Positions 1,888-20,000 of a stretch of 20,000 bases of DNA are shown here, one piece after another. The position numbers and the translations under genes are program-made. Every line of letters starts with the position of its first letter. Within the stretch, counting starts at the first letter, position 1. This DNA is from an uncultured virus (IMG/VR IMGVR_UViG_3300035698_035315) (taxonomy: Duplodnaviria; Heunggongvirae; Uroviricota; Caudoviricetes). The notes below the pieces were generated by a model. The model was not told the DNA's origin. It made no database searches and saw only the letters and a list, made by a program, of their open reading frames with translations. The stretch covers positions 51,703-71,702 of IMG/VR virus record IMGVR_UViG_3300035698_035315; one strand, written 5' to 3'.

Positions 1888-3753
1888 ATGAGAATGGAAG
1901 CTAGGATGTTGATTCGACTGGCTATGCTTGAGCATGGTATTATTGCTCAAGACGAACAGTCTGTCGAAGAAAAAGACAAGCAACCGCCAGTTGAAGAATC
2001 CGAAGAGAAGCAGTCAGAGGGGGATGAAAAATCTGATGATTCGGGTTCATCTGAATCCGAAGTTGACAAACAATCTGAATTCAAAAAACTCGTTATTGAC
2101 AAAGTAAAAGAGAAGTTGCAGTCGAATGGAAAAGCAGAAGATATAGTAATTGTTTCTTCTGATAGTTCCAAGGTTTCCAAGGTTGCTAAAGACATTGGTC
2201 TCAATATGGAAGTGACTGAGGACAATGTTCATGACGTGCTATATTCTCTTGGCGAAATGATGGACGAAGAGGCGCCCGGCGATGAAGAGGAAAAAGCAGA
2301 AGAACGTGAAAAGCCAAACAAGATGACAGAAGAGGAGGCGGAAGAGGCGGAGAGGTCTGATGATAACCAGTCTGATAAAAAACAGTCTGAAGAAGAGACA
2401 GAGAATTCTGACACAGAACCAGTTAAGAAGAAAGACAATTCAAAGAGTAACAAGATTGAGAAGGAAGTAAAAGAAAAGGCAGAGGATGTCAAGGAGAAGG
2501 CTGAAGATGTGGCAAAGGCGATGAATACAGAAGATGTAGTTGAGCTTTTCAATCGTGTAGTTGAAATGGTCACACTTTTGATAAAAGCTAATCCTCCCCG
2601 TATTCGTCGTAAGTCGTCTGATAACGCATATATGGAAAATGTTATAGACCGAATGGCAGATCGATATCTACGAGTAGCTACTCAGCTTGTAGTGGCTGCG
2701 GATAAAGATATTCCAGAAGGATATGAATTGCATGTTTTTGAGAAAGGTCCTGACGAAGGAAAAAAGATATACAGAACAAAGAAGCAGGTGAAGGGCGAAT
2801 ATCATTATGCTCCGGTTGAGGGTGAGAAGTATAGTGTTGACCGTTTCAAGAAAAAGAAAGAAGAGCCAGGAACAGAGAAGCCTGTTGAGAAACAATTTGA
2901 ATCTTTTGGTAATGCTGATTCGGTAGGTACGGCCAAATGGCACAATTCAGAAGAGCCTTTGGATGTTGAGAATGAAGGATTGATGGCGAAACGTGGTTTT
3001 ACAAAGATAGAGCCTGATTCGATTCAATTGGATGATGATATGCAGGTTGCTGATATCAAGACAGGGAAAATTTATCGTTTTGGCGATTTACCCCAGGAGT
3101 TTCAAGATAGAATAAAGTCTATTGTGGCTACAAAAGGTGCATGGAGGGCTCCTACGGATGCTGTTCTATCAAAAAAGCCAAATGAAGAATCTGAGAAGCC
3201 CAAAGCAGAGTCGGAAAAGCCCAAAGTAGAATCGAAAAAGATAGATAAAGCCAAGAGTAGTGTAGGTGAAATTGGCAAGGTCAAAGATTTCAAAGAGCTG
3301 ATTAGCAAGTTCAATGCAATTTTGAAGGATACTGGGGTAGATGAGGGATTTGCCAAGTTTATGCAATCCTATGTTTACAATTTACCAGAAAGTGAAATGG
3401 CACATTTACAAGGCAAGACTACACGGGAAATAATGGAATTGGTTATGAGTGAAATGTTGGACGGATATGCTTCCACAAAGGCTGCCTCAATGCGCTCTGC
3501 TGCAATAGCTGAAAGATTAGCAGAAGATTTGATTGCATTGAGTCTTGTTCGTCAAGCTGTTCGAGGATTACAGGTAAAACGTAAAGACAAGGACACAATG
3601 AGCGACACAGGTGGTAGTAGTAAAGGGCGACAGCGAGAACCTGAAATTAAGCCGCCTCGTGATGACTTGAAAAAGCATTTTCGTAAGAAGCGTAAACGTC
3701 CCGGCGAGATGGATAAGGATGTAGATTGCGACCCAGATAAGCGGCCAGACTGA
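1888..3753 (+). CDS. Large Glu/Lys-rich hypothetical head-region protein (621 aa)
   Basis: Long ORF with a GAGGAG SD. Low-complexity, with short internal repeats (EKAEDV x2, ESEKPK x2). No recognisable catalytic motif. Confidence 0.75.
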   Translation: MRMEARMLIRLAMLEHGIIAQDEQSVEEKDKQPPVEESEEKQSEGDEKSDDSGSSESEVDKQSEFKKLVIDKVKEKLQSNGKAEDIVIVSSDSSKVSKVAKDIGLNMEVTEDNVHDVLYSLGEMMDEEAPGDEEEKAEEREKPNKMTEEEAEEAERSDDNQSDKKQSEEETENSDTEPVKKKDNSKSNKIEKEVKEKAEDVKEKAEDVAKAMNTEDVVELFNRVVEMVTLLIKANPPRIRRKSSDNAYMENVIDRMADRYLRVATQLVVAADKDIPEGYELHVFEKGPDEGKKIYRTKKQVKGEYHYAPVEGEKYSVDRFKKKKEEPGTEKPVEKQFESFGNADSVGTAKWHNSEEPLDVENEGLMAKRGFTKIEPDSIQLDDDMQVADIKTGKIYRFGDLPQEFQDRIKSIVATKGAWRAPTDAVLSKKPNEESEKPKAESEKPKVESKKIDKAKSSVGEIGKVKDFKELISKFNAILKDTGVDEGFAKFMQSYVYNLPESEMAHLQGKTTREIMELVMSEMLDGYASTKAASMRSAAIAERLAEDLIALSLVRQAVRGLQVKRKDKDTMSDTGGSSKGRQREPEIKPPRDDLKKHFRKKRKRPGEMDKDVDCDPDKRPD

Positions 3754-13812: not shown

Positions 13813-13898
13813 TCTCTCTTTTTTATTCTCTCTTAGTGTAGAAGTAGAAGCCTGTTGACTTTCAGGGTTATTTGACCCAAGTTAGAAAGGAGATACGG

Positions 13899-14882
13899 AT
13901 GGTCCGTCGAAGAATTACTCGGATTGGAAAGAAAAAGCCGCGTAGTCTTGTTGCTGAAATTGCGGCTGTGGAAAAACAATTGGGAATGTATTCTCAGGAC
14001 GATGACTTAGACGATGATCTTTTAGAAGATGAATTAGAAGATGACTTAGAAGATGACTTAGAAGATCTTTTAGAAGACGACTTAGAAGACGACTTAGAAG
14101 ATGAATTAGAAGACGACTTAGAAGATGATCTTTTAGAAGATGAATTAGAAGATGATCTTTTAGAAGATGACTTAGAAGACGACTTAGAAGACGACTTAGA
14201 AGACGATTTGCTGATAGACGAGTCCATCTTGTCACAAGACGAAGATGAAGATGCCGAAGAAGACTACGAAGATGCCAAAGACGAAGAAGATGAAATTGAT
14301 GACGAGATTGAAGTTGAGGACGATGAAGATATTGAAGCTATGCTTTATTCAGAAGATGAAGAGGCTTCAGAGGAACTTATCGAAGAAGAATTCAATGTAA
14401 TGTCTCAAGACGATGACGACGACGATGACGACGATGATGACGATGATGACGACGATGATGACGACGATGATGACGACGACGACGACGACGACGACGACGA
14501 TGATGACGACGACGACGACGATGACGATGATGATGAAGACGATGACGATGAGATTGCTTGTGTAACATCGAGGCGCAATTCTTCTCGCAGGCGAAGGAAA
14601 GCTTCACGTCGCAGGCGTTCTAGCGAAGAAGAGCCTGGCATAGAAGACGAGATTACTCAGGATTCTCTTAGTGATGTTGAAGACGAGCGTGGCAAAGAAG
14701 ATTTGGCGACTGAACCTTCGACGCTATCAACAGCCCCAACTTCTTGCACTGCACGTTATCAGGAAGCATCGAAGCGTCTTGACAGGGTGGCAAGTTACTT
14801 TGAGAATCAAGGTCGTAAAGATTTGGCTTTGCGAGTAGATAGGCTGGCAGACGCGGTTGATGCTTTGCTGCCGAACAAATAA
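13899..14882 (+). CDS. Extremely acidic scaffold/core-like protein (327 aa)
   Basis: AAAGGAG SD before ATG 13899. EDDL repeats and a 42-Asp run, with Arg-rich patches and a C-terminal helical segment. Confidence 0.75.
   Translation: MVRRRITRIGKKKPRSLVAEIAAVEKQLGMYSQDDDLDDDLLEDELEDDLEDDLEDLLEDDLEDDLEDELEDDLEDDLLEDELEDDLLEDDLEDDLEDDLEDDLLIDESILSQDEDEDAEEDYEDAKDEEDEIDDEIEVEDDEDIEAMLYSEDEEASEELIEEEFNVMSQDDDDDDDDDDDDDDDDDDDDDDDDDDDDDDDDDDDDDDDDDDEDDDDEIACVTSRRNSSRRRRKASRRRRSSEEEPGIEDEITQDSLSDVEDERGKEDLATEPSTLSTAPTSCTARYQEASKRLDRVASYFENQGRKDLALRVDRLADAVDALLPNK
13998..14213 (+). repeat. Coding minisatellite of 12/15-nt units (GAAGAYGAHTTA) encoding EDDL/EDEL/EDDLL
   Basis: Tandem repeats read directly from the sequence. 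Confidence 0.92.
14409..14552 (+). repeat. GAC/GAT trinucleotide run encoding D42-E-D4-E
   Basis: 14409-14534 is 42 consecutive Asp codons. Confidence 0.95.
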
Positions 14883-14925
14883 GTCAAGTTCATCTTGTGA
14901 AAAGGTCGAAAGAAAGGAGAGAATA

Positions 14926-15882
14926 ATGTCGAGGCGACGGAATCGTTTAACGGCTAGTAATCGTCGCAGAGAACGTAAGGCTGTTGAGGACAGCATTCCT
15001 TATCCCGGAACGGTTAACCAACCGGATCGTCGGTTTAAGAAATGCCAAGAGTATAACACGTTTGAGCAGACTGTAAACCACGAACTCCCAGATATGCGGA
15101 CAGAGTGGAAAGAAGATGCTCATGATGAAATCGGTTTTGGTATTCCTGAAGCTGGTGGGCCTACTGTTGCCAGCATCAAGGCTGCGGCTTCCAAAGCTGT
15201 GAAGCTGGCAGTTTTGCTTCTCGGGGATAAGGTCAAAGAACAGGTTATTGAGAATCAGGCTCGCGACTTCATGAAGCTTGGCAATAAGTGTCTTGATAGG
15301 GCTCTGAAGCGCTTTGCTCAGACCGAGGACATTTACGCTGCTGATGAAGATAAAGATGAAGGCGAAAAACAGGAAGAAAAGGACGAAAAGGTTGAAAAGG
15401 AAGAAATAAAGGAAGAAAAGGTAGAGGAAGAAAAGGACGAAGAGGCTGACGAGGAAAAGGAAAAAGAGGCTTCTGAGGACGAAGAGAAAAAGAAAAAGGA
15501 CGAAGAAGAGGCTGAGGCAGAGGCTGCTAAGACAATCCAAGAAGAGGCTGAAGAAAAGGCCAAAGAAAAAGAAGCAAGCGCGGCTGAGTTTGACATAGAG
15601 TTGCAGTCAATGTCGGATGAAGGCATGCGTGAAGATGCAGCCGCCGACAAGGTACTTGCAAGTCTCTATGCTCAGGACGAAGAAGCCGACGAAGAAGCCG
15701 ACGAAGATGAATCCGGCGATGAAGATGAGGGAAAAGAAAAGACCTCATCGAAGAAAGCTACAAAGCAGGGCGTCAAAAAGCTTGGCGGCCAGCCGAAAAA
15801 AGCATCTGTTTCGTCAGATGATGCTGTCAATTTGAGCGAGCTTTGGGTAGACGCTCCTGACGTGGGCGATGTGTTTAAGTAA
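14926..15882 (+). CDS. Putative capsid scaffolding protein (318 aa)
   Basis: AAAGGAG SD before ATG 14926. Glu/Lys-rich, coiled-coil-like, with a C-terminal 'LSELWVDAPDVGDVFK'. Directly upstream of the decoration and MCP genes. Confidence 0.6.
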   Translation: MSRRRNRLTASNRRRERKAVEDSIPYPGTVNQPDRRFKKCQEYNTFEQTVNHELPDMRTEWKEDAHDEIGFGIPEAGGPTVASIKAAASKAVKLAVLLLGDKVKEQVIENQARDFMKLGNKCLDRALKRFAQTEDIYAADEDKDEGEKQEEKDEKVEKEEIKEEKVEEEKDEEADEEKEKEASEDEEKKKKDEEEAEAEAAKTIQEEAEEKAKEKEASAAEFDIELQSMSDEGMREDAAADKVLASLYAQDEEADEEADEDESGDEDEGKEKTSSKKATKQGVKKLGGQPKKASVSSDDAVNLSELWVDAPDVGDVFK

Positions 15883-15932: not shown

Positions 15933-16442
15933 ATGGCCTTGACGATTCTGATTCGTGGCCACCTCAACGCGATTCCTGTTCTCGCAGATGTTTGCTATAC
16001 AAAGGCAAACTATGGCGTGAACACGAATAACTCGCTGAGTATTAACACTCCGCGTGGCGTAATTGGTGGCTCAATTGCTGCAATCAGTGCTGGTAACGAC
16101 TACACTGTCGTTCCAGGTCACATTGACTTGCAGCCTGTTGGGTTGTTTGTCAACGATGCCGCTGGTGCGGCCTATGAGAACGCTCCTGCCGTAGCAAGCG
16201 GTAAGGTAACGGTCATGAAGGCTCAAGCTAGTGTCGAAGTTGACGTGTTTGAAACTCGTAATGCAGCTAATTCAGCAGATATTACTTACGTTGTAGGTAA
16301 TTTACTGTATAGCTCAGCACAGGGTTTCTTGACGAACGAATTGCCGTCCGATATTGGTGGTTCTGTTGATACTGTAATTGGTATCATGACGAAAGCACCT
16401 ACGACGGTTTCACCTACCATGGGTTTAGATGAAAGAATATAA
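15933..16442 (+). CDS. Head decoration/cement protein (169 aa)
   Basis: AAGGAGG SD. Small Gly/Ala/Val-rich beta protein ('PVGLFVND...SGKVTV...YVVGNLLY...GFLT...VIGI..KAP') immediately before the MCP. Confidence 0.75.
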   Translation: MALTILIRGHLNAIPVLADVCYTKANYGVNTNNSLSINTPRGVIGGSIAAISAGNDYTVVPGHIDLQPVGLFVNDAAGAAYENAPAVASGKVTVMKAQASVEVDVFETRNAANSADITYVVGNLLYSSAQGFLTNELPSDIGGSVDTVIGIMTKAPTTVSPTMGLDERI

Positions 16443-16475
16443 GCCCTGGTATAAGGCTGACAAGAGGAGAAAAAA

Positions 16476-19400
16476 ATGTCCGTAGACAATAAGACTAAGC
16501 AGGAAATCATCAGCCAATACATCAAGACTGCCGCTGGCCGGCAGCGTCTTGCGGCGAGCATTAACTGAATGGTGCTCGTAAAATCCGGTAAATTGCTGGG
16601 ACACCCTTAGACATGAAAATCAACGGCATAACAATTAGCGAAACGAGATTGACGAAGCTGACGGCTATATTAGCTAATAAGGTTTATAGTTACATGTCCA
16701 AGGACAATCAGCATCCGAGCCTTGTTGGAAACGACGAGGAAGGTTCAACGACTGGAGACGAGGCTAAGGGCCAAAAAGCCTATGCCGGTAAGGTCTCGCC
16801 TGCATTCGGTAACGATGTGGGTATGCCGGGCATTCTTGAGAAAAAGAATGGTGATACAGTCTGAACTCATCGGTAACGGTGAGAGGTAGGTTGAGAGACC
16901 TATCCGCCTTGTGCAAGCAAGGTTGTAACAGAATGGATTCAGCCTCTTCGTCGGCGTCGGGACTACACTTCCGTGGGATAACGTACCGTCTCACGTTAAA
17001 CTCGGTAAATTGCTGGAAACTCATGGAGAAGTTGTAATGCGTGAGGTTTTGAACAAAGAGTTGCTAACAAAACTCTACGTTCTTGATAAGAGAACTGATA
17101 GAGAAATTGCTGGCATACTTAATGTTCATCGTGCATCAGTTACAGTGGCTCGAAAGAGACATGGAATAAAAAAGATTAGAGAGTATGAGAGGAAAAATCT
17201 CTCTGATTTGTCTGATGTGCAGACTTCATTGATCGACGGTTCCATATTAGGTGATGGAGCAATAGAACGTAACCATTCAAGTTCGTATGTTTTTTCTTTT
17301 GGACACTCACAAAAACAACACAGTTATGCTAAGATGAAAGCGAAGATTCTTGGAGATTATTTTAGTAATGTTAGAATTGACAAGAAAGGCATGATGCGTG
17401 TCAGGTCGATTGTGCATCCTGTCTTTGGTGAATATCGAAAAGAATGTTATATCAACATAGATGGCAAGTGGCATAAAAGAATGCCCAAATCGTTATTGGA
17501 CAGATTGAATCTTTACTCGCTTTCGGTGTGGTACTGTGATGATGGTTGTCAGAGTGGCAATCAGGTTTGGTTTTGTGTGGGGTGTCCAGTTGAAGAAGAC
17601 CGCGAGAACGCAATTTCGGTTATTGAAGATAAATTTGGACTTTCTTGTTCTATTCATAAGATGAGCAGGGAAGAATGTTGGAGACTTTGTGTGTTAAAGC
17701 GTTCTCAAGAGAAATTTTTTGATATTGTGAGTGGTTTCGTTAGCATTGCAATACCGTACAAGATACCTAACTGGTATCAAGTGCGGCATGACAATCAGCA
17801 GCCAAGCCTTTTTGGAAACGAAAAGGTGGGTTCAACGACTGGTGGAAGCCTAAACTCTGATAAAGAGCATGGCGATAACACACGCCTTGATTGGGAGACT
17901 AATCAGGGTACGCCGGGTGCCTGTATGATGAAACAGGTGAAGATACAGTCTGAACAGCAGTTAATTCTTGGTAGCTGTTGAGTCTGGCAGAAATGACCAG
18001 AACGGTATCTTGAAAAAGATACTTGTAACAGATTGCGCAAGGCGTTCTTCGTCGAACAGTTGCCCGATGGTGCTTTGCCGATTTACGACAAAGACCCAAA
18101 CGTCACCGCTTATGTGATCGGTGAGGAAGGCGAGAACATCGTTGCGGTTGCAAAGCCAAAGCGTGTTCTTTTCCCGCTGTTTGAAATTGCGTCGAATCCT
18201 GAAATTCAACTCACTGAGGTTAAGTCTCGTCGTTTTGACCTTAATACCCATGGGGTCGCTGTTTAGAGATAAACAGATAAAAATATCCCGTAAATTGCTG
18301 GAACCCAAATGAGTAACGAATTTTCTGAAACTATGATGAAGACAAATTTGAACAATGATGAGGTTCGCAGTCTATATCAGAATGGTTTTTCTGATATTCA
18401 GATTGCCAAACAACTTCATGTTGGTCGTGCTAAACTTCGTGCTTGGCGTGAATCTAATGGTATTCCGTCAAAAAAGAAGGTTGTGCAAAAATTATCTTTA
18501 TCAGAATTGCAGAAAATTGTAGAAGGGCTAAATGCCGGTCAAACACTTACCAACATATCAAGTGAATTGAACATGAGTCGTGTAACCTTAGCTAAGATGA
18601 TCAAGAAGGCGGGACTTTCTTACAAAGAATACCGTCCTGCTCATCCAGTTGAGATTGACGATTATGTTCTTACACAAGTTCAAAAAGAAGTTCTTTTGGG
18701 TGATATGTTTGGAGATGGCGGACTAGTGCCTACTAGCAAAAAAAATGCTTATTATCAATGCGCTCATAGTATTGGTCAAAAGTCATTTTTATACTGGAAG
18801 GCGAATGTTTTCCATCCTTTGACTTCCAGAGTAGGAAGTTATAAGACCAAAGATGGTGAATACGTGCGAATGGGGACGTGGACAAGTGGTTGTCTCAAAG
18901 CTTATCATCAAGATTTTTATCCTGATGGAAAAGGCAATAAGACAATTACAGTCTCACTTGCAAATCGTATGACACCATTGGCATTAGCTGTTTGGTACAT
19001 GGGCGATGGTTCTATCAACAGGAATACCGGAGTATTTCATGTTGGAAGGCAAATTGAGTTTTATCAAGTAGCAGAAATTCTATCTGATAAGTTTGAAATG
19101 CTGTTGAAGGCATGTCGTTATGAACGTGAATGGCATCTTAGGGTTATGAATCCTGAAAAGTTTTTCACGCTTATATCGCCATATCTTCTTGAATCATTCG
19201 GGTATAAAGTTCCCAAAGCCTATCGTGAACTTGTTGGCAATCAGCAGCCGAGCATTCTTCCAATAATGGAGCAGACTGAACGGATTGGTGAAAACCGATT
19301 CCTCAGTGTGTCGAAAGAGAATGAAGGTTCAGAGACTGGTGGAAGCCTAAACTCTGATAAAGAGCATGGCAATAACACACGCCTTGTGAAGTTATCACAG

Positions 19401-20000
19401 GGTATGCGGGACATCCATTCCTCGTTGGATGAAGATACAGTCCACTCTACATCACTTCGATAAGATGTAGGTTGCATTGAGAGAAGTGTAGATCTGGCGA
19501 AGTCGGAGATTCAGGCTGAGGAAGACCGTAAGGTGTTCGCAGTCATGGACGCTCTCGCAACGGACCCGACGAACCCCAACCCGGACATTCCGGTAACGGG
19601 CAACCTGACGGCCAATGCGTTGGCAGATGCTTTTGCCAACATCGAGCGTACCGACATTCGGGTCGCTAACGTATTTCTCAATGCCAAGGATTATGCAGAC
19701 CTACGTAAGTGGGACCGCGATACCCTTGACATCGAGACACAGCAAGTCTTGCTGAAGACTGGCCTGATGGCAACGCTTTGGGGTGCGAAGCTTATCGTAT
19801 CTCGTATTGTTCCTGAAGGAACGGTTTATGTGTGTGGAGAACCTGAGTTCTTCGGACGCATCCCAGTAAGAACAGAGCTTACTGTTCTCTCCGCTGACGA
19901 CCCTAAGAACAGGCTGATTGGTTTCTCTGTTTTCGAGAACATCGGAATTGGGGCATACAACCCATTTTCGCTTCAACGCCTGGTTATCACGAGAGTCTAA
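16476..20000 (+). CDS. Major capsid protein, spliced: join(16476-16561,16936-16978,18036-18241,19475-20000), 286 aa
   Basis: GAGGAG SD and ATG 16476. Exons total 861 nt and join in frame: ...RQRLAASM/IQPLRRRRDYTSVG/RKAFFVEQLPDGALPIYDKD...RRFDL/IERSVDLAKSEIQAEEDRKVFAVMD...ITRV*. HK97-fold-like features are present (backbone helix, 'LWGAKLIVSRIVPEGTVY'). Confidence 0.88.
16562..16935 (+). ncRNA. Group I intron 1 (374 nt, no intact endonuclease) in the MCP gene
   Basis: P1 GCGAGCAU/GUGCUCGU with a U.G wobble, P10 CUGAAU/AUUCAG, P 'AAATTGCTGG', Q 'AATCAGCA', R 'GTTCAACGACTG' (16743), S 'GATACAGTC' (16853), terminal G16935. Confidence 0.92.
16979..18035 (+). ncRNA. Group I intron 2 (1057 nt) with an endonuclease gene
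   Basis: P at 17007, P5 TCATG/CATGA, Q at 17793, R at 17830, S at 17940. It ends TTGTAACAGATTG, like intron 1 (TTGTAACAGAATG). The 5' boundary is set by reading frame and is uncertain by 1 nt. Confidence 0.88.
17037..17981 (+). CDS. Intron-encoded homing endonuclease, N-terminal HTH plus LAGLIDADG_2-type domain
   Basis: GGAG SD then ATG 17037. HTH 'TDREIAGILNVHRASV'; motifs 'LIDGSILGDGAI' and 'LSVWYCDDG'. Confidence 0.88.
   Translation: MREVLNKELLTKLYVLDKRTDREIAGILNVHRASVTVARKRHGIKKIREYERKNLSDLSDVQTSLIDGSILGDGAIERNHSSSYVFSFGHSQKQHSYAKMKAKILGDYFSNVRIDKKGMMRVRSIVHPVFGEYRKECYINIDGKWHKRMPKSLLDRLNLYSLSVWYCDDGCQSGNQVWFCVGCPVEEDRENAISVIEDKFGLSCSIHKMSREECWRLCVLKRSQEKFFDIVSGFVSIAIPYKIPNWYQVRHDNQQPSLFGNEKVGSTTGGSLNSDKEHGDNTRLDWETNQGTPGACMMKQVKIQSEQQLILGSC
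18242..19474 (+). ncRNA. Group I intron 3 (1233 nt) with an endonuclease gene
   Basis: P1 GACCU/GGGUC with U.G, P2 CTGTTT/AAACAG, P3 TCCCGTA/TGCGGGA, P at 18292, Q at 19239, R 'GTTCAGAGACTG' (19327), S at 19432, terminal G19474. The junction CT|C restores the frame. Confidence 0.92.
18309..19463 (+). CDS. Intron-encoded homing endonuclease, two HTH segments plus LAGLIDADG_2-type domain
   Basis: HTH-like 'SDIQIAKQLHVGRAKL' and 'TLTNISSELNMSRVTL'; motifs 'VLLGDMFGDGGL' and 'LAVWYMGDGS'. Confidence 0.88.
   Translation: MSNEFSETMMKTNLNNDEVRSLYQNGFSDIQIAKQLHVGRAKLRAWRESNGIPSKKKVVQKLSLSELQKIVEGLNAGQTLTNISSELNMSRVTLAKMIKKAGLSYKEYRPAHPVEIDDYVLTQVQKEVLLGDMFGDGGLVPTSKKNAYYQCAHSIGQKSFLYWKANVFHPLTSRVGSYKTKDGEYVRMGTWTSGCLKAYHQDFYPDGKGNKTITVSLANRMTPLALAVWYMGDGSINRNTGVFHVGRQIEFYQVAEILSDKFEMLLKACRYEREWHLRVMNPEKFFTLISPYLLESFGYKVPKAYRELVGNQQPSILPIMEQTERIGENRFLSVSKENEGSETGGSLNSDKEHGNNTRLVKLSQGMRDIHSSLDEDTVHSTSLR

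Follow-up and report, generated by a model that had tools for sequence, protein, structure and literature searches.

The second of three group I introns in the major head protein gene of an uncultured Caudoviricetes virus probably uses a 5' splice site that lacks the usual U.G wobble. Judging from comparison with related introns, the cut would fall after A16978, where it is likely to be slower and less accurate than in those relatives. The U.G wobble at the 5' splice site is usually treated as invariant. Here, one homologous intron is found at one gene site in both natural states, U.G in two related lineages (L060 and L209) and A-U in the window, by which we mean the whole 20,000-nucleotide stretch of DNA analysed. 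The A-U copy retains a U.G one pair further along the helix, which makes it a natural experiment on whether the wobble or its position selects the cut site.

The capsid gene is predicted to comprise four exons and three group I introns

The window forms the final 20 kb of an IMG/VR record of 71.7 kb. The DNA runs that contain the stretch are labelled as salt lake metagenomes; 13 listed runs contain it or parts of it, four of them with half or more of the sampled words, and one of these four may be the source sample. The gene at 16476-20000 on the plus strand encodes the major head protein: its exon 4 is matched by PHROG 2522 ('major head protein') with E 3.6e-28. A homologue without introns, L001 (ORF 2869-3744), lies in LR745208.1, a 485-kb uncultured phage, and matches the capsid gene at E 2.1e-47; it was the single match in a blastn search against GenBank phages. 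The exon structure was derived by tblastn with the L001 protein, from homologue sequence and with a script that joins exons by coordinates, and reads as follows.

16476..16561, plus strand: exon 1 of the major head protein gene, placed by tblastn with L001; ends in U16561, a canonical U.G site
16562..16935, plus strand: intron 1, group I without a full endonuclease gene (Rfam RF00028)
16936..16978, plus strand: exon 2, 14 codons plus one base, ending in A16978, the third position of the GGA codon for Gly
16979..18035, plus strand: intron 2, 1057 nt, predicted IA-type group I, with terminal G18035 and a core that aligns with relatives
18036..18241, plus strand: exon 3, from comparison with homologues and tblastn
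18242..19474, plus strand: intron 3, group I with a LAGLIDADG ORF at 18309-19463, following a canonical U18241.G site
19475..20000, plus strand: exon 4, with the PHROG 2522 match (E 3.6e-28); the record ends with its stop codon

The 3' end of intron 3 was set at G19474 because homologues read D-L-I-E-R there, and the junction of exons 1 and 2 reads A-A-S-M-I-Q-P, the same as in L209, which is intronless at site 1. All four exons are open. Joined, they form a 286-codon open frame with 207 identities in 292 alignment columns against L001, and the protein is 88-93% identical to many relatives. Each intron ends in UG and each begins with UAA (at 16562, 16979 and 18242), a shared start that an earlier note on this sequence had already pointed out. 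From their sequence and predicted folds, introns 1, 2 and 3 are related IA-type group I introns within this one gene. No other capsid gene was found in the record; with CheckV giving a completeness of 37, the genome is not whole and a second one is possible.

The unusual bases are reproduced in other assemblies of the locus. The earlier note had named an assembly error as one of two explanations for the odd splice site, and the comparison contradicts it. One IMG/VR contig (L004) is 100% identical to the window over 3923 nt, and another (L003) has one mismatch in 6528 nt, at 17397, away from the positions in question; in both contigs the two junctions are unchanged. Logan contigs from three further runs show 0 differences and 0 gaps over 16400-18619 (X2), over 16786-17155 and 17837-18248 (X3) and over 16747-17250 and 17985-18258 (X4), and thus at both junctions; all three runs are distinct from the possible source run, X1. 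This confirmation comes from assemblies and not raw reads, so rare variants could be hidden. An error in sequencing or assembly, either at 16978/16989 or at the 3' junction, would need two matched changes; nothing was found in its favour, and we regard it as scarcely credible. None of the runs listed for 16400-20000 was an RNA run, and among the Logan contigs covering this stretch there was no intron-free DNA form of the capsid gene.

The 5' splice site of intron 2 probably lies after A16978

The pairing that defines the 5' splice site of intron 2 involves two short segments.

16972..16979, plus strand: 5' strand of P1, seven exon bases plus the first intron base, U16979
16988..16995, plus strand: internal guide (3' strand of P1), in which U16989 pairs with A16978 and relatives have G

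As the earlier note had drawn it, P1 is an 8-bp helix (16972-16979/16988-16995) topped by the wobble U16979.G16988. The hairpin is the minimum-energy structure by RNAfold (-9.9 kcal/mol, z -2.24), with 3 of 200 shuffles as good. The pair at position -1 is A16978-U16989, so the U.G wobble with the last exon base is absent.

The reading frame discriminates between the two adjacent cut sites in the way the earlier note had argued. Joining A16978 to C18036 keeps the frame through GGA|CGC, giving the open 286-codon frame and the conserved Gly-Arg. Joining U16979 to C18036 adds one nucleotide, and the resulting 862-nt product loses the frame, with its first stop at codon 73. The proposal that the ligated junction pairs on with the guide also holds, in that C18036 could bind G16988 and G18037 could bind C16987, which would extend P1 by a 2-bp P10. 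Guide base G16988 therefore has two partners, intron U16979 in P1 and C18036 in P10.

The site falls between the Gly and Arg codons of a conserved V-G-R-K motif. In 77 homologues that are intronless there, the residue at the site is Gly in 74, Ala in two and Ile in one, followed by Arg and then by Lys or Arg. Together with the homologous introns described below, these comparisons leave A16978|C18036 as the only predicted junction that combines a terminal G, the frame, Gly-Arg and positional homology to the GGU|UAA junctions of L060 and L209. The same four features support unusual site selection, the other explanation in the earlier note. Moving both sites one base leftward was also considered: Gly-Arg is kept, but the intron then ends in U and the exon in G, which makes two anomalies instead of one.

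A canonical-looking choice does exist within the locus. Cutting after U16974 and joining after G18031 would give an exon ending in U and an intron ending in G; the product is in frame, reads V-L-R-K and is open, with 206 identities in 292 columns against L001. This alternative is nevertheless extremely unlikely, since U16974 pairs with A16993 inside P1 and no guide G could be found by eye in 16975-17016. Leu occurs at the site in none of the 77 homologues, and the equivalent choice is out of frame in L060, owing to one extra U before the terminal G of the L060 intron.

Intron 2 has an IA-type core and an endonuclease gene

Intron 1 reaches 51.4 bits against Rfam RF00028, for which the gathering score is 50. 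Intron 2 gives a partial match (17677-17971) of 23.3 bits, below that gathering score, because its core is split by about 770 nt of ORF. Column-by-column alignment to intron 1 is possible for its 5' and 3' parts, its core also aligns with the introns of L060 and L209, and introns 2 and 3 carry the same core sequence blocks as intron 1. At the 3' end, G18035 is the terminal base, within an end motif common to the relatives.

The 3' halves of five introns fold into P6, P7, P7.1, P7.2 and P8, with compensatory changes at 28 of 58 predicted pairs across the five sequences, and window intron 2 keeps all of these helices; its P3, P4 and P5 can be drawn by eye as in intron 1. Subgroup IA is distinguished by two extra hairpins, P7.1 and P7.2, lying after the 5' strand of P7 and before the 3' strand of P3, and such hairpins are present at alignment columns 63-105 and 106-130. 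The wobble receptor in J4/5 is A-rich in all of the introns, and by eye it shows no obvious adaptation in window intron 2.

The intron also encodes a homing endonuclease.

17037..17981, plus strand: LAGLIDADG homing endonuclease ORF of intron 2, 314 aa (Pfam PF03161, E 2.2e-25, residues 65-227)

This ORF sits in the P5 loop and extends into the 3' half of the core, and its protein is 56% identical to that of the intron 2 ORF in L060. The intron 3 ORF matches LAGLIDADG_2 (E 1.9e-21), and both reading frames are intact. The transposon part of an IStron (IS200/IS605 or IS607) was sought in intron 2 and is absent, the sole long ORF being the LAGLIDADG protein. From these features, intron 2 is best explained as a genuine IA-type group I intron that is mobile and carries the gene for a LAGLIDADG endonuclease.

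We also considered whether the intron, or the whole element, is decaying and splicing is no longer needed, as the provirus label and the completeness of 37 could imply. This is very unlikely given four open exons with 88-93% protein identity to many relatives, two intact endonuclease ORFs and core helices that have been kept. Moreover, the only oddity is a matched, pairing-preserving double change, and no signs of decay were noted in intron 2 apart from this change of the -1 pair. Intron 2 is a real and probably functional variant with a predicted non-U splice site.

Homologous introns carry U.G at the same site

The earlier note had proposed a comparison with homologous introns at the same capsid site. 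Among the 80 capsid loci examined, of 358 relatives found, nearly all are without introns. L060 has introns at sites 1 and 2, and L056 has one at site 1. A third lineage, L209, came from a pattern scan of metagenome contigs; its one intron lies at site 2. In DNA, the introns that L060 and L209 have at site 2 are about 67-69% identical to that of the window or to each other, and they encode the same endonuclease family. Their presence at exactly this codon in two diverged relatives speaks against a chance feature. Both follow the canonical pattern, with GGU as the Gly codon, UAA at the start of the intron (GGU|UAA), GG before a shared CUCAC in the guide, and U.G as both the -1 and the +1 pair.

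Tabulating P1 for seven introns shows that the -1 pair is U.G in six of them and A-U only in window intron 2. The +1 pair is more variable, being U-A in intron 1 of L060 and of L056. Window intron 2 and its counterpart in L209 have the same seven exon pairs, the same U.G at +1 and the same linker to P3; P1 of window intron 2 departs from that of L060 and L209 at just the two -1 partners, A in the exon and U in the guide. Since introns 1 and 3 and the relatives have U.G at -1, the A-U state is derived, and the A-U pair is a compensatory double substitution from U.G.

The exon half of this change is synonymous, as it falls in the Gly codon. GGA is found at this codon in 12 of 72 intronless genes, including those of the closest relatives, L005 and L006. 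It is thus a normal allele, and the intron may have arrived on, or drifted within, a GGA background. Only one lineage is known to have the A-U state, in copies that are all nearly identical.

The endonuclease protein, used alone and as a two-sequence alignment, retrieved from viral contigs only the window's own lineage (two contigs) and the L060 contig. Patterns of the 5' junction gave three loci in viral contigs, three in metagenome contigs (one of them new, L209) and none in genome contigs. The 3' junction pattern gave 10 loci in viral contigs, namely three known contigs and seven chance matches without a capsid exon.

A model for the choice of splice site

The ancestral state, which two diverged relatives retain, was GGU with a guide G; in the window lineage the exon base changed to A and the guide base to U, so that pairing was kept and the wobble lost. 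The intron may have come to a GGA background through homing with little co-conversion, or by drift. An A-opposite-G mismatch would then have arisen and later been repaired by the G-to-U change in the guide. In the present intron, the position of P1 in the ribozyme would set the cut, placing it after A16978, which is Watson-Crick paired with U16989 in the absence of the usual wobble. After the first step, G16988 would release intron U16979 and pair with C18036 in P10, and ligation after terminal G18035 would yield GGA|CGC.

The case for a fixed position comes from introns with tandem U.G pairs. In window introns 1 and 3, and in intron 2 of L060 and L209, U.G is found at both -1 and +1, and the frame demands the -1 site. 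Because these members must use the -1 site, the family would normally cut at a fixed helical position and ignore the U.G at +1. In window intron 2, that position now holds A-U, so the cut is thought to fall after A16978. Splicing there is probably efficient enough, at a rate below that of the U.G form. The intact U.G one pair further (U16979.G16988) could attract cleavage, and a mixture of A16978 and U16979 cuts is possible.

The ribozyme might instead follow the wobble outright. It would then cut after U16979 and leave most transcripts frameshifted, with capsid protein made from a minor, correctly spliced fraction, or the allele would be mildly to severely defective. U16979.G16988 is the only wobble at the top of P1, and the wobble is said to be a main determinant of the cleavage site. 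In Tetrahymena, studies attributed to Doudna in 1989, Barfod and Cech in 1989, Pyle in 1994 and Strobel and Cech in 1995/96 reportedly found that a Watson-Crick pair in place of the wobble lowers the rate and fidelity of the first step, and that the wobble helps choose the site. We consider this outcome, the main rival, unlikely. It would halt translation at codon 73, no other capsid gene was found in the record, and the same allele has been assembled in several runs and contigs. The tandem-U.G relatives already pass over the +1 pair, and the change from G to U in the guide keeps A16978 paired, a matched change expected if that pair matters.

Returning to cleavage after A16978, a stronger form of the model is that the family picks its 5' cut by helix position alone and cuts a plain A-U efficiently, ignoring the adjacent U.G. 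We put this forward tentatively, as a plausible extension of the sequence pattern. If it is correct, intron 2 would be the first case in nature of a group I intron demonstrated to have A as the last base of its 5' exon, and the 'universal' wobble would be dispensable in phage IA introns. Many such introns would then have been discarded by annotation rules that demand U.

Comparison with known systems

A natural Watson-Crick pair in place of U.G at the cut site would not be peculiar to window intron 2. Hur and Waring reportedly described in 1995 group I introns of fungal mitochondrial cox1 that have C.G at the 5' splice site, and the C is said to be forced by the codon. Unlike in these introns, the base in the window is at a free third position of a Gly codon, so that the A is not forced by the protein, and the exon strand contributes the purine to the A-U pair.

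Among phage introns, that of T4 td is reportedly of IA type, with a homing endonuclease and U.G at the cut site. Landthaler and Shub are said to have reported in 1999 three introns in one gene of Twort, likewise with U.G at the cut site. The window shares with these systems a phage host, P7.1/P7.2 between P7 and P3', a loop that holds an endonuclease ORF, a gene with several introns and an intron starting with UAA. Intron 2 differs in having A-U at the cut site, where T4 td and Twort reportedly have U.G.

The nearest parallel at the 5' splice site is the group B IStrons. One paper states that the last 5' exon base in group I introns is 'virtually always a U (or exceptionally a C)', and that group B IStrons splice after G, so that the U-G pair contributes its U as the intron's first base (Tourasse, Stabell & Kolsto 2014, PMC4227781). 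For BcISt1 of Bacillus cereus ATCC 10987, the same paper reports a junction confirmed by RT-PCR and sequencing (PMC4227781). As in these elements, the 5' exon of window intron 2 would not end in U, and a U-G lies one position past the cut, closing the helix beside the loop. However, the exon before a group B IStron ends in G and the element includes an IS200/IS605-type transposon part, and neither is true of window intron 2. In contrast to the IStrons, it has an exon A paired with U, a LAGLIDADG endonuclease, a location in a phage capsid gene and close relatives with canonical U.G at the same site. Intron 2 resembles a group B IStron at its 5' site and is not a member of that group.

The expectation of U is built into how such introns are catalogued. 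In a survey of introns in the Bacillus cereus group, U is treated as an insertion requirement (PMC2504315). A 2025 intron database required U before every intron and rejected 16,427 candidates without it (PMC11835236). No published report of an A-U 5' splice site was found in the open-access literature. Introns like window intron 2 disrupt the calling of capsid genes in metagenomic phages and are missed by intron finders that demand a U.

Relationships among the introns and neighbouring genes

Several minor observations concern the introns as a group. The 83-aa ORF of intron 1 (16613-16864) corresponds to just the two ends, ~22 residues at the start and ~20 at the finish, of the 342-aa LAGLIDADG ORF in the homologous L060 intron 1. 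As the match covers only the two ends, intron 1 has lost its endonuclease by internal deletion. The endonuclease ORFs of introns 2 and 3 (17037-17981 and 18309-19463) start in the P5 loop and continue through P4', P6, P7, P7.1/7.2, P3' and P8, and the last 60-70 codons of both double as ribozyme core.

The P7.1/P7.2 region has a distribution of its own. Over 61 nt it is 95% identical between intron 2 (17829-17889) and intron 3 (19326-19386), and one Logan contig jumps from 19333 to 17837 via this repeat. Here window intron 2 is similar to intron 3 and to intron 1 of L060, and intron 2 of L060 and of L209 is similar to window intron 1, a pattern that points to recombination between introns. Sub-threshold matches to the Rfam LOOT RNA (RF03000, gathering score 46.4) at 17847-17921 (29.2 bits) and 19344-19433 (21.4 bits) fall exactly on the P7.1/P7.2 hairpins of introns 2 and 3.

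The record stops exactly at the capsid stop codon (19998-20000) and L003 and L004 run further, so the record is a fragment. It bears the IMG/VR label of provirus, yet phage contigs of 250-485 kb are among its relatives. ORFs 13872-14882 and 14857-15882, upstream of the capsid gene, contain long acidic or Glu/Lys-rich low-complexity runs, and the second was without a match in a PHROG search; their position suggests scaffold-like proteins. The ORF directly 5' of the capsid gene (15933-16442, 169 aa) likewise had no match in a PHROG search, and ORFs similar to it also precede the capsid gene in L001 and L209.

A 16-base core motif was found at at least 118 loci in viral contigs. Of the 80 loci examined from this set, most were chance matches and about a dozen were intron-like by eye. 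In the same metagenomes as the window, further contigs match only the conserved core blocks of these introns and differ in the loops, one of them at a depth of 54 in X1. These contigs suggest that related group I introns are frequent among other genomes there.
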